This document shows positions 29,291-36,984 of a stretch of DNA of 64,000 nt, one piece after another. The DNA is from a virus (Duplodnaviria > Caudoviricetes). The stretch spans positions 3,710-67,709 of the IMG/VR virus record IMGVR_UViG_3300033072_001056. One strand, given 5' to 3'. Each line of letters starts with the position of its first letter. Within the stretch, counting starts at the first letter, position 1. The notes under the pieces were generated by a model. The model was not told where the DNA came from and ran no database searches. It worked only from the letters and a program-made list of their open reading frames with translations. The position numbers and the translations under genes are program-made.

Positions 29291-31951
29291 ATGAAAAATT
29301 TATCAGCAGATATTGAGATTGCTATTAAAGACGCAATTTCCGGAATGAATTTAGACATTAACATCTTAGATGTTGATGATGACAAATTAGCTACATTGAT
29401 GTCTTCTCGATTAGAATCATTTTCAGCCACAAAGGAAATGATAAAGCTTTGGCAAGAATCACCTAACGCGCCAAGCCAAGCAAAACTTAGAAAAAACGCA
29501 GAGGAACTTATAAAATCGGGAGAAAATTCGATAGAAGTACTTCGTCAAGCGCTTAGAAAAAAAATAGCCTTTAGCGAATTAGACACAGAGAAGTACGGAA
29601 AGGCTATTAAGTCCAAGCCCGTAATTTTTAAGGCAATTAACGAGATTAATGCCGGAGTACTATCTTTGAAACTTCAGTTAGACGCAGACCAATTAGACTT
29701 CAAAGAACGCGAATTTCGACGTGGATTTCCCGAGAAATTTGCTTCGCAAGAATTTTTTCCCGCAAAAGATTATCACAAGGAATGGTATGACAAAGAAACC
29801 GATTCGGTAATGATTTGTCCGCTTGGCACAAAAGGGAAAGTGATTACTCTTGACGGATTAAACATTATGCTTCCGGCGCCACCAAAATCAAAAAAGAAAA
29901 TACTTTTCAGTAATTTACCAAAAGAAGAACAGTATTGGCGAAGAATCGAACCTCCTCAAGGGCTTACTCCGGAAAACGAAGATGTGTACTACGATTTTAT
30001 TATCGAGGAATTCCGTAAGCGTAGGGAGGGAGTTTGGTTTATGAATAACGGTGAACCGGTATATCTTACCCCGGCGCATTATATGGCGTTACAATGGGTG
30101 AAAATGTTAGATACCGGCTCGTTTATGGATTTCAGATATGCGCAAGCAGAAATGTTTTACTTCACGCGCGCGTGTGTTTTAGATCCGCGATGTTTAGGAG
30201 AGCTGTTTGTAAAGTCACGTCGTACCGGTTTTACCTATCAGATTATTTGCGAAATGATAAATGACGGAACCGGAACATCAAATGCCAAACTTGGTATGAT
30301 TTCAAAAACCGGTGATGATGCCCAAGAAGCATTTTTAAAAATGACTTATGGTATTCAAAACTTACCATTCTTTTTTATACCGGTAGTCAAAGGCAAAATT
30401 GACAGTAAAACAGAAGTTGAATTTGCCAAGCCTTCAGATTCTAGTAAGGTTGCCAAAAAGAAAAAAGACAATAGTACCGATGATTACTTGAATACTTTGA
30501 TGAATTGGAAAACGACTACTGAATCTGCTTATGACGGACAAAGAATGTATCGTTTGTTAATTGACGAGGCGTCAAAACCACTACCCCCATTTAATCTTGA
30601 AACTTATTGGGGACGTGTATCTCCAACCATTAATAACGGTGGTAGGATTGTAGGTAAAATATACGTTGGTTCAACGGTAAACCCTATGAAACTTGGTGGG
30701 GACAAATTCTTGAGAATGTACAAAGGCGCTATGGTTTCAAAAAGAGACAAGGACACTCAAAGAACACCAAACGGTCTGTACGCCTACTTCTTGCCAGCTC
30801 ATAAAAACATGGAATTATTTACCGATAAATACGGAGTTTGTCATACTGTTGTACAGCCGGGCGAATCGTTTACCAATGTTTACGGAACTGAAATATTTGA
30901 AGGGTCAATTCAATATTTGGAAAATATCCGTCGCCAAAAAAGAAAGCAATCGGACATTTTGTACAATGAGGAATTGCGCGCTAATCCAATGACTGTTGAA
31001 GAAGCATTTAGAGATGAAGCTAAGGCAAGTATGTTTAATCTCGAGAAGATAAATGACCAAATTGCTTATAATGATTCTCAAGATATTGAGCAAAAACAAC
31101 TTGTTCGCGGTAATTTCCAATGGAAAGACGGGCAAAAAGATTCTGTCGTAGAGTGGCATCCAAATCCAAGAGGTAGATTTTTACTAAGTTGGATTCCACC
31201 TAAAGAATTACAGAATAAATGGGAGATGAAAGTCAATATGTTTGGTGGAAGAAGCAAGCATCCGTCTAATGAAGATTTAGGATGTCTTGGTATTGACTCT
31301 TATGATATTAATTCGACAGTTGATTCTAAATTAGAAAACACAGAGAACGGAAGCGAATGGTCGGGAGGTTCTAAAGGAGCAATATCCGGAGTTACTTCTA
31401 AATTCACATTGAAAGATGCCCCGAGCAACTCTTTCTTTTTAGAGTATATTGCCCGACCGGAAACAGCCGAGATGTTTTTTGAAGATTGTTTAATGGCTTG
31501 TGTGTTTTATGGTATGCCGGCGCTTGTCGAAAATAACAAAGCACGATTGCTTTATCACTTTAAAAACAGAGGTTACCGAGGGTTTTGTCTTAGCCGATTT
31601 GACAAGCCTTCTAACAGATTAAGTCCTACCGAAAAAGAAATTGGCGGAATTCCTTCAAACTCCGCGGACGTTATTCAAATGCACTATACTGCAATTGAGG
31701 CTTATGTAGAAAAATACGTTGGGTATTATACTCAAGGAGATGATTTAGCTCCGGTAAGAGAAGAAAATGAAATTGGTTCAATGCCGTTTAACAGAACATT
31801 GCGCGATTGGGCAAGTTTTAATATTTCAGACAGAACAAAATCGGATATTTCAATTGCCTCGGGTTATGCCTTAATGGGTGTAAACAGACATAGTTACAAG
31901 TTTCAAAACGAAGCACCGGCGCCAATTGCTTTTAAAATTCGTTATAATTAG
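29291..31951 (+). CDS. terL: Terminase large subunit with an ~150 aa N-terminal extension
   Basis: Walker A KSRRTGFT, Walker B LLIDEASK, nuclease GIDSYD, C-terminal D..IASGYALM. Confidence 0.9.
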   Translation: MKNLSADIEIAIKDAISGMNLDINILDVDDDKLATLMSSRLESFSATKEMIKLWQESPNAPSQAKLRKNAEELIKSGENSIEVLRQALRKKIAFSELDTEKYGKAIKSKPVIFKAINEINAGVLSLKLQLDADQLDFKEREFRRGFPEKFASQEFFPAKDYHKEWYDKETDSVMICPLGTKGKVITLDGLNIMLPAPPKSKKKILFSNLPKEEQYWRRIEPPQGLTPENEDVYYDFIIEEFRKRREGVWFMNNGEPVYLTPAHYMALQWVKMLDTGSFMDFRYAQAEMFYFTRACVLDPRCLGELFVKSRRTGFTYQIICEMINDGTGTSNAKLGMISKTGDDAQEAFLKMTYGIQNLPFFFIPVVKGKIDSKTEVEFAKPSDSSKVAKKKKDNSTDDYLNTLMNWKTTTESAYDGQRMYRLLIDEASKPLPPFNLETYWGRVSPTINNGGRIVGKIYVGSTVNPMKLGGDKFLRMYKGAMVSKRDKDTQRTPNGLYAYFLPAHKNMELFTDKYGVCHTVVQPGESFTNVYGTEIFEGSIQYLENIRRQKRKQSDILYNEELRANPMTVEEAFRDEAKASMFNLEKINDQIAYNDSQDIEQKQLVRGNFQWKDGQKDSVVEWHPNPRGRFLLSWIPPKELQNKWEMKVNMFGGRSKHPSNEDLGCLGIDSYDINSTVDSKLENTENGSEWSGGSKGAISGVTSKFTLKDAPSNSFFLEYIARPETAEMFFEDCLMACVFYGMPALVENNKARLLYHFKNRGYRGFCLSRFDKPSNRLSPTEKEIGGIPSNSADVIQMHYTAIEAYVEKYVGYYTQGDDLAPVREENEIGSMPFNRTLRDWASFNISDRTKSDISIASGYALMGVNRHSYKFQNEAPAPIAFKIRYN

Positions 31952-31952
31952 T

Positions 31953-31983
31953 TTTGGTAGATTAAAAAATATTACTATATTTG
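31953..31983 (+). promoter_or_regulatory. Promoter of tRNA array 1
   Basis: TTTG-N19-TATATTTG. Confidence 0.85.
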
Positions 31984-32000
31984 CCTCAAATAAAGAAGAA

Positions 32001-32075
32001 ATGAAAAAAATGATTACCATAAAAACGATTGCAAGAGTTGGGGATAATTTTCCAAGCAAGGGGACTATGGTGTAA
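32001..32075 (+). CDS. Leader peptide 1 (MKKMITIKTIARVGDNFPSKGTMV)
   Basis: Short ORF between promoter and terminator; codons 2-16 match the array-1 tRNAs. Confidence 0.8.
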   Translation: MKKMITIKTIARVGDNFPSKGTMV

Positions 32076-32099
32076 ATTTTGTTTAGTTTTAACACATAA

Positions 32100-32137
32100 A
32101 AAATCCCCTAATAACATTAGGGGATTTTTATTTTTTT
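32100..32137 (+). terminator. Attenuator terminator 1
   Basis: ATCCCCTAAT-AAC-ATTAGGGGAT plus T-tract; left arm also pairs with leader AGGGGA (32059-64). Confidence 0.85.
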
Positions 32138-32211
32138 GGGGGCGTATGTTTCAAGGCTGACGACTTTGATTTGCAATCAGAGTGAGGTGATTTCGATTAT
32201 CACCGTCTCCA
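32138..32211 (+). tRNA. tRNA-Ala(UGC)
   Basis: Cloverleaf, loop TT-TGC-AA, G3:U70. Confidence 0.85.
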
Positions 32212-32226
32212 CAACAATAAGACAAT

Positions 32227-32256
32227 ATGAAAACAAGTAAAAAGTTTAAGAAGTAA
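32227..32256 (+). promoter_or_regulatory. Lys-rich minigene MKTSKKFKK upstream of tRNA-Lys
   Basis: 5 of 9 codons are Lys; followed by mutually exclusive hairpins at 32257-32292. Confidence 0.65.
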
Positions 32257-32288
32257 TCTGCTCTCAATGATTGGGAGTAGAAATCTAT

Positions 32289-32361
32289 TCCCTCTAAACA
32301 TTATTGGTGGATGTACCAAACTTTTAATTTGGGAAGCCGTGTTCGAATCACGGAGGGGGAA
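32289..32361 (+). tRNA. tRNA-Lys(UUU)
   Basis: Cloverleaf, loop CT-TTT-AA. Confidence 0.9.
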
Positions 32362-32366
32362 CGAAA

Positions 32367-32439
32367 CGGAATATAGCTCAATTGGTGGAGCAATCGCCTG
32401 ATACGCGAGAGGTTATAGGTTCAAGTCCTTTTATTCCGA
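32367..32439 (+). tRNA. tRNA-Ile(GAU)
   Basis: Cloverleaf, loop CT-GAT-AC. Confidence 0.92.
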
Positions 32440-32445
32440 CAAAAC

Positions 32446-32518
32446 GCGAGTATGGTGTCAATGGTTAACATTAGAGACTTCCAATCTCAAGATGTCAGTT
32501 CGATTCTGACTACTCGCT
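32446..32518 (+). tRNA. tRNA-Gly(UCC)
   Basis: Cloverleaf, loop CT-TCC-AA, U73. Confidence 0.92.
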
Positions 32519-32523
32519 CAAAA

Positions 32524-32596
32524 GGTCTATAGGTCAAATGGGTAAGATGTCCGGCTGTCGCCCGGTACGGAGAGGGTTCGAATCCCTCATAGACCG
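32524..32596 (+). tRNA. tRNA-Asp(GUC)
   Basis: Cloverleaf, loop CT-GTC-GC, G73. Confidence 0.9.
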
Positions 32597-32602
32597 CTAA
32601 AT

Positions 32603-32675
32603 GCTTCTGTAATTCAATTGGTAGAAACCCGCATTTGTAACGCGGAAGTTGCAGGTTCGACTCCTGTCAGAAGCT
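32603..32675 (+). tRNA. tRNA-Thr(UGU)
   Basis: Cloverleaf, loop TT-TGT-AA; A31-C39 mismatch. Confidence 0.88.
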
Positions 32676-32680
32676 CAATT

Positions 32681-32751
32681 GCCCAATTTGCATAACGGAA
32701 GTGCCGTTGTTTTACACGCAACAGCAGGGTGTTCGATTCACTCATTGGGTA
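32681..32751 (+). tRNA. tRNA-Val(UAC)
   Basis: Cloverleaf, loop TT-TAC-AC. Confidence 0.88.
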
Positions 32752-32756
32752 CAAAT

Positions 32757-32827
32757 GTCGGTATAGTTCAACGGAAGAATAAGACCCTTCTAAGGTTTTG
32801 ATGAGAGTTCGAGTCTCTCTACCGATT
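32757..32827 (+). tRNA. tRNA-Arg(UCU)
   Basis: Cloverleaf, loop CT-TCT-AA. Confidence 0.9.
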
Positions 32828-32832
32828 CAATA

Positions 32833-32909
32833 GGGCTTGTATCGCCTCTGACTCATAATCAGTAGAAAGCGTAATCGGTCACACGGCGGTTCAATTCCGT
32901 CCAAGCCCA
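32833..32909 (+). tRNA. Atypical CAU tRNA (Ile2-like) with the D-arm-like hairpin 3' of the anticodon arm
   Basis: Perfect acceptor and T arms; anticodon arm CTGA-CTCATAA-TCAG starts 9 nt after the acceptor strand. Confidence 0.7.
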
Positions 32910-32913
32910 CAAA

Positions 32914-32985
32914 GGAAGTATGGTGAAATGGTATCACGACAGACTGTTAATCTGTTAGTTTCAAGTTCGAGTCTTGATATTTCCG
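32914..32985 (+). tRNA. tRNA-Asn(GUU)
   Basis: Cloverleaf, loop CT-GTT-AA, G73. Confidence 0.92.
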
Positions 32986-32992
32986 CTAAAAA

Positions 32993-33023
32993 TTTGATAA
33001 TTTGAATTTTATTTTTACATTTG
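32993..33023 (+). promoter_or_regulatory. Promoter of tRNA-Met and array 2
   Basis: TTTG-N19-TACATTTG. Confidence 0.85.
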
Positions 33024-33026
33024 CAG

Positions 33027-33098
33027 GGCGTGAAGGTGTAATCGGTTGCATTGGAGTCTCATAAACTCTACGGGGTGGTTCGAATCCACGACACGCTA
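33027..33098 (+). tRNA. tRNA-Met(CAU), elongator type (Ile2 not excluded)
   Basis: Loop CT-CAT-AA, G2:C71 and C3:G70; lacks the initiator GGG/CCC stem. Confidence 0.75.
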
Positions 33099-33112
33099 CA
33101 AAGACATATATT

Positions 33113-33184
33113 ATGAGAAATTTAAGTTTATGTTCGTTTTATTGGTTGTCGTTTAAAAACGACACGGGATATAGCGCGCATTAA
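33113..33184 (+). CDS. Leader peptide 2 (MRNLSLCSFYWLSFKNDTGYSAH)
   Basis: Codons 4-14 match the array-2 tRNAs. Confidence 0.8.
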   Translation: MRNLSLCSFYWLSFKNDTGYSAH

Positions 33185-33210
33185 ATTTACCTTGTAATTA
33201 TTTAAAAGCT

Positions 33211-33239
33211 AATCCCGTTCGAAAGTTCGGGATTTTTTT
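33211..33239 (+). terminator. Attenuator terminator 2
   Basis: AATCCCG...CGGGATT plus T5; left arm pairs alternatively with leader CGGGATATAGC (33165-75). Confidence 0.85.
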
Positions 33240-33242
33240 ATT

Positions 33243-33326
33243 GGGAGTAACGCTCGAATTGGTTAGGCGCTTGACTGTAAATCAGGTAATCTGCATAGAT
33301 AGGTGGTTCGAATCCATCTGCTCCCA
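33243..33326 (+). tRNA. tRNA-Tyr(GUA)
   Basis: Loop CT-GTA-AA, long variable arm. Confidence 0.9.
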
Positions 33327-33332
33327 CAAAAT

Positions 33333-33406
33333 AGCTGTATGGCGGAACGGTAGACGCATCAGACTTAAAATCTGTACAACTGTGGGTTCGACTCCCACTA
33401 CAGCCA
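33333..33406 (+). tRNA. tRNA-Leu(UAA) lacking the long variable arm
   Basis: Loop CT-TAA-AA; 6-nt variable region; A1-C72 mismatch. Confidence 0.85.
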
Positions 33407-33414
33407 CAAAAAAA

Positions 33415-33501
33415 GGAGGTATAACCCAAGTTGGTCTAAGGGGCGCTGTCTTGAAAACAGTTGGTCGTAATGGCGTGTAAGTTCGAGTCTTACTGCCTCC
33501 G
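33415..33501 (+). tRNA. tRNA-Ser(UGA)
   Basis: Loop CT-TGA-AA, long variable arm, G73. Confidence 0.92.
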
Positions 33502-33507
33502 CAAAAT

Positions 33508-33591
33508 GGAGAGTAAACTAATCAGGTGGTTAGACTTGTTTGCTAAACAATGGGTGGGTAAAACCTTGGGAATCGTGTTCTCTGCTCTCCG
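33508..33591 (+). tRNA. tRNA-Ser(GCU)
   Basis: Loop TT-GCT-AA, long variable arm, non-canonical T-loop ATCGTGT. Confidence 0.85.
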
Positions 33592-33600
33592 CTATAAATT

Positions 33601-33671
33601 GCTTCTCAGCGTAGGTTGTGCCAATCGGTCTCCAAAACCGTATTGTAAAGGTTCGAATCCTTTGAGTCGCG
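33601..33671 (+). tRNA. tRNA-Trp(CCA), degenerate acceptor and short D arm
   Basis: Loop CT-CCA-AA, canonical T arm, two acceptor mismatches. Confidence 0.72.
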
Positions 33672-33676
33672 CAAAA

Positions 33677-33749
33677 GGAAATTTGGCAGATAAGGTTATT
33701 GCGCTCGACTGAAAATCGAGAGGGCTCGGATCGTTACCGAGAATTTCCA
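33677..33749 (+). tRNA. tRNA-Phe(GAA)
   Basis: Loop CT-GAA-AA; T-loop ATCGTTA. Confidence 0.88.
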
Positions 33750-33754
33750 CAAAC

Positions 33755-33825
33755 GACAAGAAGCCTGACGGAGAAGGGTGCGGTCTGCAAAACCAAACAT
33801 CGCGGTTCGATTCCGCGTCTTGTCT
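33755..33825 (+). tRNA. tRNA-Cys(GCA)
   Basis: Loop CT-GCA-AA, U73. Confidence 0.88.
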
Positions 33826-33833
33826 CAAATTAG

Positions 33834-33905
33834 AACGCAATGCAAGATTCGAACTTGCGTCTTTTGGTTCGTAGCCAAAGATTTTTCCAATTAAACTAAT
33901 CGCGC
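33834..33905 (-). tRNA. tRNA-Arg(ACG)
   Basis: Loop CT-ACG-AA on the minus strand. Confidence 0.9.
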
Positions 33906-33910
33906 ATTTG

Positions 33911-33991
33911 TACGGACGAGAGGACTTGAACCTCCAAAGCTAACGGGTCTAAACCGCCAAGATGTGCCATTCTCAATAAAGCCACGTCCGC
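33911..33991 (-). tRNA. Atypical tRNA-Leu(UAG): enlarged D region, no long variable arm
   Basis: Acceptor and T arms intact; loop TT-TAG-AC; ~26-nt D region. Confidence 0.72.
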
Positions 33992-33996
33992 AATTG

Positions 33997-34068
33997 GGTG
34001 TTTTCGGGTCTCGAACCCTGTTCTCCGGATTCACAGTCCGGCACTTTACCTGTTAAGCTAAAAACACC
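33997..34068 (-). tRNA. tRNA-His(GUG)
   Basis: Loop CT-GTG-AA; encoded G-1:C73. Confidence 0.88.
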
Positions 34069-34074
34069 ATATAG

Positions 34075-34147
34075 TTTCTTTGTCAAGACTCGAACTTGAA
34101 CAACGAGAGTCAAAGTCTCGTATGCTAACCAATTACATCACAAAGAA
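34075..34147 (-). tRNA. tRNA-Gln(UUG)
   Basis: Loop CT-TTG-AC; U1:A72. Confidence 0.9.
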
Positions 34148-34153
34148 TTTTAG

Positions 34154-34225
34154 TAACGCATACGGGATTCGAACCCGTGATTAGAAATAGAAAGTTTCTT
34201 GTGCTGACCACTACACTAATGCGTC
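34154..34225 (-). tRNA. tRNA-Glu(UUC)
   Basis: Loop CT-TTC-TA (U at position 37). Confidence 0.88.
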
Positions 34226-34230
34226 TTTTG

Positions 34231-34307
34231 TCTAGTTGGCAGGAATCGAACCTGCGTAACTCCCGCTTCCAAGGCGGGCGAGTATATCCATCTGCTCCGA
34301 CAACTAG
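34231..34307 (-). tRNA. tRNA-Pro(UGG)
   Basis: Loop CT-TGG-AA; C1:G72, A73. Confidence 0.9.
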
Positions 34308-34311
34308 AAAT

Positions 34312-34340
34312 AAAAAAAGCCTCCCAATTACGGAAGGCTT
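34312..34340 (-). terminator. Attenuator terminator 3
   Basis: AAGCCTTCCG-TAAT-TGGGAGGCTT plus T-tract; left arm pairs alternatively with leader CGGGAGG (34379-85). Confidence 0.85.
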
Positions 34341-34365
34341 TAGCTAATATATTTTATTTACATAT

Positions 34366-34440
34366 TTACACGCTTGTTCCTCCCGATAAAATATCCGGCT
34401 CTTGAAGACGTTGTTCAGTATGTAATTTTAATCTTTTCAT
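34366..34440 (-). CDS. Leader peptide 3 (MKRLKLHTEQRLQEPDILSGGTSV)
   Basis: Codons 7-15 match the array-3 tRNAs; near-leaderless ATG. Confidence 0.8.
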   Translation of the reverse strand: MKRLKLHTEQRLQEPDILSGGTSV

Positions 34441-34444
34441 ATTG

Positions 34445-34474
34445 CAAATATATGAATACTTTTTAAGTCTGCAA
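34445..34474 (-). promoter_or_regulatory. Promoter of tRNA array 3
   Basis: TTG-N19-TATATTTG on the minus strand. Confidence 0.85.
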
Positions 34475-34484
34475 GTATTTATAG

Positions 34485-34531
34485 AAAAATAATATGAATT
34501 CTACAACTTATATAAAGTTTTTCTATCTTTG
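34485..34531 (+). promoter_or_regulatory. Late-class promoter (portal)
   Basis: AAAAATAATAT box starting 39 nt before TATCTTTG. Confidence 0.65.
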
Positions 34532-34554
34532 TTGTGTAAATATTTATCAGACAA

Positions 34555-36984
34555 ATGGATAATAGTAAGAACGGCAATTTCAATATAAGCCCAATGGTTA
34601 GTTTTCCAAGTCAATTGGAGCCATTCGAAGTAAAAAAAACTAAAGAGTGGGGGCTAAGATTGGCTCAGTCAATACAAAGCGATTGGTTTTACGGGATGAA
34701 TACCGGAAACTTTTTGTCTTCTCAATTCAATTTGCAAAGACGTGATTTTTTACAAAGACGTTTATACGCAAAAGGATTGCAGTCAATGGACAAATACATA
34801 GAGCAATTCAAATCAGACGGAGACAAGTCGTTCTTAAACCTTCCAACTAAACCGATTAGTATTATCCCTAAATTAGTTGATGTGGTTGTTAATGGGATGG
34901 CCGACAGAGGTTATTCTATTCGTGCTACTTCAATTGACCCGATTGGTCACAAAGAAAGAGTAGCTTACAGAGAGCAGATTGAAACCGACGTTCTTTCAAA
35001 AGACATAATTGTTCAAGCAAAAGAAAAATTAGGCGTAGATGTGGCTAGTATGCCACTAGAACAACTTCCGGAGACCGACGAAGAATTGAACTTGCACATG
35101 GAACTTGAGTACAAGCAATCTATCGAGCTTTCTCAAGAATTGGCAATTGAGCAAGTAATGAATGACAACCGGTACAACGACAAAATAGACAGAATGGTTA
35201 AAAAAGACCTAACTATTTTGGGAGTTTCTTGGGTTAAACATCGTTTTGTTCCGGACAAAGGAATTGTAATCGAGTATGTAAATCCGGAAAACAAAGTGCA
35301 ATCATATACCGACGACCCTTATTTTGAAGATTGCTATTACCACGGAGAATTTAAGACGGTTCCGCTAACTCAAATTTATACGGATTACCAATGGCTTAAT
35401 CTTCCGGAAAACGCAGATATAAAAGCGCAAGTTGAATATTCAGCAAACGGATGGTGGGAATACAATTTGATTGCAAGCAACGACAGAATTAAAGGAGTTG
35501 CCAATTTGCTTTATTTTACATACAAAACCACAAGACCAAAGCAAAGAAAGATAAAACTCAAAGCCACCGGTGAGAAAAGAATTATCCCAATGGAATACAA
35601 AGGGAATCCGGACAAAAACCCAAACATTAAAATAACAACCGTAGAGGAAGAAGTTTTAATGGAAGGAGTTTATGTTTTAGGAACAGACATAATGCTTAAA
35701 TGGGAAGTTGCCGAATCTATGGTTAGACCAAAGTCTAACAGACAAAAGGTAATTGACCAATACATAGGTGTTGCTCCTAATATGGAAAGAGGTTATATTG
35801 ATTCGCCGGTTGCTAGAATGATACCTGTAGAAGACCAATTAAACATACTCGAATTAAAAGGCGCTCAAATCATTCAGAAAATACAACCTGACGGGTTTAT
35901 GATTGATGTGGATGCAATTGCCGAGTTAGATTTAGGAAACGGCTCCAAATTAACCGTTCAAAATGTTGTAGATATGTTTTGGCAAACCGGTAGTATTTTC
36001 ACTAGAAGTTTCGGAGCAAGTGGCGACCCAATGTATTCTAAGCCTATTACTGAATTAAGAACCGGAGACTCTATAACTAAACTACAAGCACTTACCGCTC
36101 AAAAAGCGCAGTATATGGATCAGATGCGTGACGTTATCGGATTAAACAAAGTTTCCGATGCTTCAACACCTGATAAAGATTCTTTAGTAGGAGTTCAAAA
36201 GCTTGCTTCTTTAAATTCAAATATTGCGACTCGTCATATTTTAGATGGGGCTTCTGACATAACAAAAAGAATTGCATTAGCTATTACATATCGAATTCAC
36301 GACTTATTAAAGTTCACCGAATTAAAAGAAGATTTTTCAAGAAAAATAGGTTCGACATCGGTTAAGACGTTAGAGTCTGTAAAAGATTTGCATTTGCACG
36401 ATTTCGCAATTTACTTAGATTTACATTTAGACGATGAGGAACGCGCGAAATTAGAACAAGATATGTCATTGGCAATTGACAAAGGGATGATGAGCATTCA
36501 AGATAAATACAAGGTTTTGAATATTAAAAACTTCAAACTTGCGTTGTCTTATATGACAATTTTGGTCAATAAATATCAGAAAAAACAACAAGAGCAAAAA
36601 GCCCAAGAGTACAAGATACAAGCCGATGAGAACATACGTGCTGCACAAAGCGCAGAGCAAGCTCGTCAGCAAACGGCTCAAATGATTAGTCAATTTGATA
36701 TGGCCAAGCAACAATTGGTTAATGACGGATTGATACAAAAAGAGCAAGTCAAAGGACAGGAAGACCGTTCTACATTGGAAATTAAAATCGAAGGAGATTT
36801 GATGGTTGCCCAAGCACAATCAGGTGTTAAAATGCAGATTCAAGAAGAAATGGAAAACCGTAAGGATGAAAGAGAGAATCTTAGATACACCAATCAAAGC
36901 AAGGAAAACTACAAAAAAGAAACCGGCGGTGCGCCAATTGACTTCACTCAAAACGATGAAATAAACGAAGTGTTTAAAATGTAA
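34555..36984 (+). CDS. Portal protein (crAss/phi14:2-like)
   Basis: Size and position after terL; FPSQ...K...EWG, RRLYAKG.Q, PISIIPK.VDVVVNGM motifs. Confidence 0.85.
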   Translation: MDNSKNGNFNISPMVSFPSQLEPFEVKKTKEWGLRLAQSIQSDWFYGMNTGNFLSSQFNLQRRDFLQRRLYAKGLQSMDKYIEQFKSDGDKSFLNLPTKPISIIPKLVDVVVNGMADRGYSIRATSIDPIGHKERVAYREQIETDVLSKDIIVQAKEKLGVDVASMPLEQLPETDEELNLHMELEYKQSIELSQELAIEQVMNDNRYNDKIDRMVKKDLTILGVSWVKHRFVPDKGIVIEYVNPENKVQSYTDDPYFEDCYYHGEFKTVPLTQIYTDYQWLNLPENADIKAQVEYSANGWWEYNLIASNDRIKGVANLLYFTYKTTRPKQRKIKLKATGEKRIIPMEYKGNPDKNPNIKITTVEEEVLMEGVYVLGTDIMLKWEVAESMVRPKSNRQKVIDQYIGVAPNMERGYIDSPVARMIPVEDQLNILELKGAQIIQKIQPDGFMIDVDAIAELDLGNGSKLTVQNVVDMFWQTGSIFTRSFGASGDPMYSKPITELRTGDSITKLQALTAQKAQYMDQMRDVIGLNKVSDASTPDKDSLVGVQKLASLNSNIATRHILDGASDITKRIALAITYRIHDLLKFTELKEDFSRKIGSTSVKTLESVKDLHLHDFAIYLDLHLDDEERAKLEQDMSLAIDKGMMSIQDKYKVLNIKNFKLALSYMTILVNKYQKKQQEQKAQEYKIQADENIRAAQSAEQARQQTAQMISQFDMAKQQLVNDGLIQKEQVKGQEDRSTLEIKIEGDLMVAQAQSGVKMQIQEEMENRKDERENLRYTNQSKENYKKETGGAPIDFTQNDEINEVFKM

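Follow-up and report, generated by a model that had tools for sequence, protein, structure and literature searches.

Codon-matched leader ORFs before three phage tRNA arrays: likely multivalent transcription attenuators that sense decoding supply

Introduction

Why, and when, do phages use their tRNA genes? The question is open, and the ideas on offer are compensation for codon usage, replacement of degraded host tRNAs, and escape from defences that target tRNAs. The locus described here gives this question a concrete form: a short ORF stands before an array of tRNA genes, its codons call for the tRNAs that the array encodes, and a terminator hairpin lies between the two. Is this arrangement a coincidence? 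Or does the translation of the leader decide if the array is transcribed?

The answer proposed is that this ORF, leader 1, is likely one of three multivalent, ribosome-mediated transcription attenuators that gate three tRNA arrays by sensing decoding supply; no expression data are available to support this reading. The window, i.e., the whole stretch of DNA that was analysed, is 64,000 nucleotides long and represents most of a phage genome of ∼69 kb.

The tRNA island

The terminase DNA is ∼65% identical to the terminases of Flavobacterium Elemovirus phages, and a Flavobacterium-type phage can be inferred from sequence alone. Between the large terminase and the portal gene lies an island of 2.6 kb (31952-34554) without long ORFs, in which 24 tRNA genes were identified with ARAGORN, at default and relaxed settings, and with Rfam. 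The anatomy of the island is shown: the leader 1 unit is one of three such units in the window (Table 1).

The island is absent from the Elemovirus Flavobacterium phages and from the IMG/VR contigs L002, L004, and L005, which are related to the window phage by portal protein or DNA; in these, the terminase adjoins the portal. These close relatives therefore permit no leader comparison, and contigs L001 and L003 are the same phage as the window. Relative to the Elemovirus and IMG/VR relatives, the whole tRNA island with its putative attenuators is an insertion between the terminase and portal genes.

Table 1. Features of the tRNA island and its flanks, with one leader from a further contig. Energies and pairings are predicted; promoter boxes are putative.
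Feature	Coordinates	Strand	Remarks
Large terminase	29291-31951		
-7 promoter box of unit 1, TATATTTG	31976..31983	+	Bacteroidota-type; called by consensus and position
Leader ORF 1	32001..32075	+	24 codons, peptide MKKMITIKTIARVGDNFPSKGTMV then stop
Regulatory codon run of leader 1	32004..32048	+	codons 2-16, 15 codons; 11/11 array 1 decoding classes
Small hairpin in leader ORF 1	32038..32055	+	in minimum-energy fold of RNA cut at terminator loop
Antiterminator 1	32059..32109	+	5' strand 32059-32071 (leader codons 20-24) with 32092-32109; about -13.7 kcal/mol
Intrinsic terminator 1 and T-run	32099..32137	+	stem 32099-32129, 14 bp, -16.0 kcal/mol
tRNA array 1	32138..32986	+	Ala-UGC (32138), Lys-UUU, Ile-GAU, Gly-UCC, Asp-GUC, Thr-UGU, Val-UAC, Arg-UCU, CAU tRNA, Asn-GUU
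CAU tRNA of array 1	32833-32909	+	Rfam 33.7 bits; loop CUCAUAA
-7 box before CAU tRNA 33027, TACATTTG	33016-33023	+	
Separate CAU tRNA (tRNA-Met)	33027-33099	+	without its own leader
Leader ORF 2	33113..33184	+	peptide MRNLSLCSFYWLSFKNDTGYSAH
Regulatory run of leader 2	33122-33154	+	codons 4-14, LSLCSFYWLSF; 7/7 array 2 classes
Antiterminator 2	33164..33218	+	33164-33175 (leader codons 18-21, has ACGGGAT) with 33208-33218 (has ATCCCGT, terminator 5' arm)
Intrinsic terminator 2 and T-run	33206..33240	+	-10.3 kcal/mol; two bases before tRNA-Tyr
tRNA array 2	33243..33826	+	Tyr-GUA, Leu-UAA, Ser-UGA, Ser-GCU (33508-33592), Trp-CCA (33601-33672), Phe-GAA, Cys-GCA (33755-33826)
tRNA array 3	33833..34307	-	Pro-UGG, Glu-UUC, Gln-UUG, His-GUG, odd Leu-UAG-like tRNA, Arg-ACG
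Intrinsic terminator 3 and T-run	34309..34341	-	11-bp stem, -15.1 kcal/mol; directly before tRNA-Pro
Antiterminator 3	34332..34384	-	GGGAGG 34384..34379 (leader codons 19-21) with CCTTCC 34337..34332 (terminator 5' arm)
Leader ORF 3	34366..34440 (ATG at 34440)	-	peptide MKRLKLHTEQRLQEPDILSGGTSV
Regulatory run of leader 3	34422..34396	-	codons 7-15, HTEQRLQEP; 6/6 array 3 classes, one foreign codon (Thr)
-7 box of unit 3, TATATTTG	34445..34452	-	four bases before leader 3 ATG
Portal gene	34555-36984		
Leader MKTNKPTYKPTDAKAKGCDCGYDSCDCRDTFVS and terminator of contig L019	4035-4245 (contig numbering)	+	terminator -20.9 kcal/mol; 3'-arm core GTCGAG repeated at ORF end

Some of the tRNA genes are unusual in themselves. 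In the CAU tRNA of array 1, only 4 nt stand in place of the 15-nt D arm of the Rfam model, and the variable region carries an 18-nt insert. It is possible that this gene encodes the reader of AUA, as the same slot is occupied by an Ile-UAU tRNA in phage Calle_1 and in contig L012. In array 3, an odd tRNA-like gene (33991..33910, minus strand) is 82 nt long with an over-long 5'/D region; ARAGORN calls it Pro-UGG, but its counterparts by alignment in related arrays are the Leu-UAG tRNAs, and its loop is TTTAGAC. Arrays 2 and 3, on the plus and minus strands, converge with 6 nt between their last genes (33826-33833) and with no terminator between them.

As for the first gene of array 1, the gene that follows terminator A is always an Ala-UGC tRNA with G3:U70 (32138-32212 here, and likewise in L007, L008, and L012). 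A 21-nt search pattern from its anticodon arm is unchanged in the window phage and the Cellulophaga-type arrays, and the remainder of the gene differs. When the gene is searched with Rfam, a tmRNA-like fragment (20.7 bits, below threshold) scores above tRNA. The spacer between tRNA-Ala and tRNA-Lys (32213-32288) is 76 nt long and contains a nine-codon ORF (MKTSKKFKK) and a small hairpin; at the same position, the spacer of Calle_1 has only 27 nt.

Codon content of the leaders

How closely does each leader match the array behind it? To count the match, Leu, Arg, and Ser were split by codon box and ATA was treated separately. Codons 2-16 of leader 1 read K K M I(ATT) T(ACC) I(ATA) K T(ACG) I A(GCA) R(AGA) V(GTT) G(GGG) D N; array 1 can decode all 15, arrays 2 and 3 can decode none of them (0/15), and foreign codons begin only at codon 17. 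The run of leader 2 calls for Leu(UUR), Ser (both AGY and UCN), Cys, Phe, Tyr, and Trp. In leader 3, the Arg codon is CGT and the Leu codon is CTT, i.e., the boxes read by the Arg-ACG and Leu-UAG-like tRNAs of array 3. Over codons 2-16, the proportion decodable by the leader's own array is 11/15 for leader 2 and 8/15 for leader 3, and every class of the own array is present in each case (11/11, 7/7, and 6/6 for leaders 1, 2, and 3).

The background for run length was a set of 4415 in-frame 23-codon windows taken from the 32 long ORFs of the phage. The longest own-array runs in leaders 1, 2, and 3 are 15, 11, and 7 codons (8 with one mismatch), with empirical p values of 9e-4, <2e-4, and 1.4e-3 (<2e-4 with one mismatch). 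A run of at least 15 codons for array 1 occurs in 0.09% of the windows. When the leaders were instead paired with the arrays of the other units, all six combinations gave p values of 0.46-0.99 against the same background, none of them significant. Given in-set codons, the probability that every class is covered is 0.004, 0.026, and 0.028 for leaders 1, 2, and 3. Finally, 249 ORFs that begin with ATG and span 18-45 codons were scored over the six frames, and for every array the top rank fell to the ORF standing directly before it. Chance is excluded for the codon match of leader 1.

An earlier note, made without database searches, had placed leader 1 at 32001-32137 with its terminator, read codons 2-16 as a 15-codon match to array 1 that includes every specificity, and found no foreign codon before codon 17. 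All of this held (11/11 classes), as did the CAU tRNA in array 1 and the tRNA-Met at 33027, which is a further CAU tRNA. The note had also proposed a permutation test of the match against windows of the genome, and this test was passed (0.09% of 4415; coverage 0.004; rank 1/249).

The match is one of amino acid and codon box, not of exact anticodon, and extended U34 wobble is required to read ACC and GTT. Foreign codons occur at the flanks of leaders 2 and 3, and a single Thr codon lies inside the run of leader 3. Each tRNA class is sampled by just 1-3 codons, to be compared with the 7 His codons of hisL. This point counts against the attenuator reading, since the sensitivity to any one tRNA could be low.

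Promoters, start contexts, and variants

Leader ORFs of 23-24 codons begin with ATG at 32001, 33113, and 34440 (minus strand), and units 1 and 3 have an upstream -7 box and an A-rich or leaderless start. The sequence TATATTTG is taken to be the -7 box of Bacteroidota promoters, the consensus of which is TAnnTTTG. This sequence is not enriched across the window (7 found versus 4.1 expected), so that the promoter calls rest on position only and the promoters remain inferred. A scan for sigma-70 promoters was set aside as uninformative for a Bacteroidota host.

For unit 1, the expected start is near 31987-31988, which would give the transcript a short 5' UTR rich in A. The box of unit 3 stands so close to the ATG that the mRNA of leader 3 is probably leaderless, with the transcription start again an inference. 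Unit 2 has no -7 box directly before leader 2; one can suppose that this leader is fed by the box at 33016-33023 before tRNA-Met, or by read-through of array 1. That box ends 3 nt before the first base of tRNA-Met, which suggests a tRNA transcript without a 5' leader.

Strain differences in the leader and terminator segments were looked for in four DNA metagenome runs, and only a handful were found, too few to count as evidence. They include a change in a terminator loop (32116), two T-runs with inserted T residues, and a T>C change at 33109, just before the ATG of leader 2. Leader 2 itself has a synonymous GAC>GAT at 33163 and H23R at 33180. In unit 3, a change at 34323 turns a U.G pair of the terminator 3 stem into U-A, and T22I is found at 34376. 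Inside the regulatory runs there were 0 strain differences in the same four runs, with the same small numbers.

Alternative folds and geometry

Can the leader RNA choose between two structures? The full-length minimum-energy fold of unit 1 contains the terminator. When the RNA is cut at the terminator loop, the minimum-energy fold pairs 32059-64 with 32104-09 and 32066-71 with 32092-98, and the 3' strand of this antiterminator takes in TCCCCT, the 5' arm of terminator 1. The alternative pairing is shown for the three units as a matter of computed folds: with the RNA cut at the terminator loop or the 3' arm blocked, the terminator 5' arm pairs with the G-rich leader codons 19-22 (3/3 units), and the G-rich antiterminator stretch repeats the core of the terminator 3' arm (3/3). 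The duplex of antiterminator 2 reaches -16.0 kcal/mol (z -4.6). The small hairpin upstream, inside leader ORF 1, might serve as a pause or anti-antiterminator element, a possibility that has only the sequence behind it.

The spacing of the units is equally regular. From the first base of the last regulatory codon to the antiterminator strand there are 13, 12, and 14 nt in units 1, 2, and 3. Given the known size of the ribosome footprint, 12-14 nt corresponds approximately to the leading edge of a ribosome stalled at the last regulatory codon. The antiterminator strand would then begin just beyond the reach of the stalled ribosome, and this inference explains why the first foreign codon of leader 1 falls at codon 17. 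At the other end, each T-run stops 0-2 nt before the first tRNA of its array (3/3 units); that of terminator 1 ends at 32137 and abuts tRNA-Ala at 32138. Read-through is consequently the only way to transcribe at least arrays 1 and 2. The terminase stop is 150 nt before terminator 1, and terminator 2 is located after array 1 and tRNA-Met.

Terminator 1 (-16.0 kcal/mol) exceeds antiterminator 1 (about -13.7 kcal/mol) in stability, and the switch must therefore be kinetic and co-transcriptional, as in trp. In the absence of a ribosome, the predicted nascent fold is the antiterminator, so that untranslated transcripts would read through, unlike those of trp.

These folds bear on the remaining claims of the earlier note. 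Its antiterminator (32059-73 with 32092-109) and its upstream hairpin (32038-55) both held in the fold of the truncated RNA. It had stated that an antiterminator unable to compete with the terminator would refute the reading; this is not what the nascent-RNA fold gives, although the terminator is still the more stable structure at equilibrium. The leader-peptide attenuator reading is supported by the permutation test, the nascent fold, the two further units, the homologous units, and the tracking of array content by leader composition (see below). That slow decoding leads to read-through is unproven.

The polarity of the switch is thus an inference, and a rival reading turns it around: translation would be needed for array expression, e.g., by preventing the action of Rho or by opening structure, or else the elements would serve RNase P/E processing or precursor stability. 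In favor of the opposite polarity are the fact that the direction is inferred only and the ribosome-free nascent fold, which already favours the antiterminator. In favor of a processing role, hairpin terminators adjoining tRNAs affect processing in E. coli (PMC2241853). Against the former, the 5' strand of the antiterminator sits in the 3' end of the ORF just past the reach of a stalled ribosome, which is the classical geometry of stall-induced read-through; against the latter, the codon matching is left unexplained. Both variants of this rival are considered very unlikely, and attenuation with read-through upon stalling remains the preferred reading.

Homologous units in other phages

Homologous arrays with partly conserved gene order are found in the Cellulophaga phages phi38:1 and Calle_1 (Pervagoviridae), phi19:1 and phi10:1 (Assiduviridae), and in the uncultured contigs L012, L013, and L017, which come from IMG/VR and metagenomes. 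All of them have units made of promoter box, leader, terminator, and array, with three such units each in phi38:1 and Calle_1.

Calle_1 illustrates the correspondence. In its unit A, the leader MKTIMNIATDIRTKGVK... precedes Ala, Lys, Ile, Gly, Met, Asp, Thr, Val, Arg-UCU, and Ile-UAU; in unit B, the leader ...YNNFSWYSNCSFSSYN... precedes Tyr, Ser, Ser, Asn, Trp, Phe, and Cys; and in unit C, the leader ...LLHQEPLEQLRLP... precedes Pro, Glu, Gln, His, Leu, Leu, and Arg-ACG. Similarly, phi19:1 has a leader ...HIQRLPQP... before Pro, Gln, His, Leu-UAG, and Arg-ACG, and phi10:1 has ...WSYSCFSYSF... before Tyr, Trp, Phe, Ser, and Cys. Over 11 units, 78 of the 81 array classes occur in codons 2-16 of the leader of the same unit (p 1e-35 by Fisher test, on units that are not independent). 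Such cross-phage counts overstate independence because homologous units share ancestry.

Related leaders conserve their composition and not the order of their residues. Glu codons are present in the leader only where the array has a tRNA-Glu, and there are none in phi19:1, which has no such tRNA; CUN-Leu codons follow array content just as cleanly. UUR-Leu codons are concentrated in leader 2 of the window phage, where Leu-UAA belongs to array 2, and in leader C of Calle_1 and L012, where it belongs to array C. Asn is enriched in leader B of the same two, where array B has a tRNA-Asn. For UUR-Leu and Asn this is a tendency only, as both also occur in some leaders whose array lacks the tRNA in question. 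Most strays fall within a few codons of the start, a stretch in which A-rich codons are frequent. Leader composition, then, largely follows array content, with a clean fit for two classes (Glu and CUN-Leu) and no more than a tendency for the other two (UUR-Leu and Asn).

The structures are shared as well. The same antiterminator appears in the truncated-RNA fold of 9 of the 11 units; in the other two, unit C of L012 and that of phi19:1, the antiterminator strand lies upstream of the 39-nt tail window and was missed, as these ORFs are longer. On average, a leader tail is predicted to pair with its own terminator arm at -11.9 kcal/mol and with the arms of other units at -8.7 kcal/mol, a difference reached in 0 of 20000 permutations (p<5e-5). 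Conservation with co-variation is shown: antiterminator and terminator sequences change together across phage lineages. The presence of homologous regulated arrays in unrelated genome contexts of Pervagoviridae and Assiduviridae suggests that the units travel as a mobile cassette.

More distant arrays give a mixed picture. In the metagenomic contig L019 (WLWF01001051.1), the amino acids are partitioned differently: a leader rich in K, P, Y, D, A, G, and C precedes tRNA blocks of Tyr/Glu/Gly, Pro x2/Asp x2/Gly/Ala/Cys, and Lys x3. In L016 (IAS virus, crAss-like), an array of 18 tRNAs has several internal gaps of 160-250 nt, and no codon-matched mini-ORF with terminator was found in it; the design is therefore not universal among Bacteroidota phages.

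Two mini-ORFs were also seen before tRNAs of L015 (LR745206.1), a 634-kb uncultured phage, in the oriented segments 1436-1759 and 2400-2720. One, ...SYESYYEEG..., stands before Glu x3/Tyr x2 tRNAs; the other, ...ISIAVIGNGAGAI..., is accompanied by a terminator of -15.7 kcal/mol before Ile-UAU, Gly, Met, and Gly. The leader design is apparently the same in this very large phage.

Could the leaders nevertheless be something simpler? They might be chance ORFs or independent micropeptide genes, the hairpins ordinary terminators of the units upstream, and the arrays driven by unrecognised promoters. Terminators 1 and 2 are indeed placed where they could end upstream transcripts (of the terminase, and of array 1 with tRNA-Met), and some of the homologous ORFs are annotated as hypothetical proteins in GenBank. 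Against this, the 0-2 nt between T-run and tRNA leave no room for a promoter, the codon match is array-specific and far beyond chance, and antiterminator and terminator co-vary. Furthermore, the conservation of composition without residue order is what leader peptides display and functional peptides do not. This rival is regarded as very unlikely, and the leaders are read in what follows as parts of attenuators.

A proposed mechanism

How would such an attenuator work? Host RNA polymerase would start at the Bacteroidota-type promoter, and a ribosome would translate the leader of 23-24 codons. If the whole run is decoded fast, the ribosome would reach the end of the ORF and cover the G-rich 5' strand of the antiterminator (codons ∼19-22). 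With this strand masked, the terminator hairpin would form and transcription would end immediately short of the first tRNA. A shortage of any one tRNA class of the array would instead stall the ribosome inside the run and leave the antiterminator strand free. The free strand would capture the emerging 5' arm of the terminator, and the polymerase would read into the array. The outcome would be a negative feedback on decoding supply, set separately for three amino-acid groups. The trigger might be a host tRNA pool that fits poorly, the shut-off of the host, or a tRNA-cleaving defence. Translation of the leaders, coupling of ribosome and polymerase in this host, and the physiological trigger are all inferred.

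The same hardware could answer to another signal, namely amino-acid starvation or general translation stress, perceived through uncharged tRNA and not through tRNA abundance. It is established for classical attenuators that the ribosome stalls alike whether the tRNA is absent or uncharged, and many amino acids at 1-3 codons each are what a general sensor might display. However, a general sensor needs neither three mutually exclusive leaders, each matched to its own array, nor leaders that track array content across phages. The logic is also weak because more tRNA does not relieve amino-acid starvation. This alternative is thus judged unlikely, and the supply of decoding tRNAs is retained as the signal.

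Relation to known systems

The features expected of a leader attenuator at the sequence level, i.e., a short ORF, cognate codons beyond chance, a terminator, and an exclusive antiterminator, are met according to the models used, while translation and read-through are inferred. The enterobacterial amino-acid attenuators are well known and have been modelled (PMC1183508). As in ilvGMEDA (Leu/Val/Ile), thr (Thr/Ile), trpL, hisL, pheL, and leuL, the phage units have a leader ORF with regulatory codons and a terminator directly before the genes. As in those systems too, the antiterminator shares the 5' arm of the terminator, and its other strand would be masked by a ribosome that finishes the leader. 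The multivalent ilv and thr attenuators respond, moreover, to several amino acids at once.

The differences are also clear. The enterobacterial products are biosynthetic enzymes, whereas those of the phage units are tRNAs; the former use runs of one to three amino acids, the latter 6-11 decoding classes at 1-3 codons each. The phage units are encoded by a virus, have Bacteroidota-type promoter contexts, are probably in part leaderless, and show no obvious 1:2 anti-antiterminator.

Closer in function is pheST of E. coli, in which the well-characterized pheM leader controls phenylalanyl-tRNA synthetase: here too a leader attenuator acts on the translation apparatus via cognate codons, but the gene is that of a synthetase, a single amino acid is involved, and the system is bacterial, not viral. 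T-box riboswitches, too, switch between terminator and antiterminator, and they control translation-related genes according to the state of a specific tRNA; unlike the phage units, which would sense by translation of an ORF, they bind uncharged tRNA directly via a specifier codon, without a ribosome.

A search of 31000-36000 gave no Rfam match at E<=1 to a T-box or any other riboswitch family. Two sub-threshold Rfam matches were treated as hairpin noise: Phe_leader over terminator 3 (27.8 bits versus a threshold of 55) and MicC over terminator 1 (35.7 versus 90 bits). With this sub-threshold Phe_leader as the only match to a leader family, no sequence or Rfam family relationship to known leaders was found.

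In the literature searched, the coverage of which is incomplete, no description of leader-peptide control of tRNA genes was found, and a publication may exist. The transcriptome paper on phi38:1 (PMC5335546) mentions tRNA for host genes only and has nothing on the regulation of phage tRNAs.

Concluding remarks

A bolder reading goes beyond the single locus. In it, the units would be demand-controlled tRNA cassettes whose leaders act as supply sensors; a block of tRNAs would be made only when its codons decode too slowly, and the cassette, leaders and arrays together, would move between unrelated phage families as a module. The balance of evidence tips slightly towards this reading. If it is true, the occasions for making the tRNAs would be a mismatched host, the period after host shut-off, or the triggering of a tRNA-cleaving defence.

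If the finding holds, leader-peptide attenuation would be extended from amino-acid and synthetase genes to tRNA genes, and 15 codons would sample as many as 11 classes, a valency without parallel in the classical systems. A compact natural part for tRNA-responsive gene control would become available. For annotation, the rule would be that short ORFs directly before phage tRNA arrays are probably regulatory and not hypothetical proteins.

As for why and when phages use their tRNA genes, the question would become directly testable, since these units also occur in Cellulophaga phages that are in culture and already have RNA-seq data from infection (phi38:1, PMC5335546). If the reading holds, a decoding-speed sensor specific to each array would imply that these phages express their tRNAs conditionally and homeostatically.
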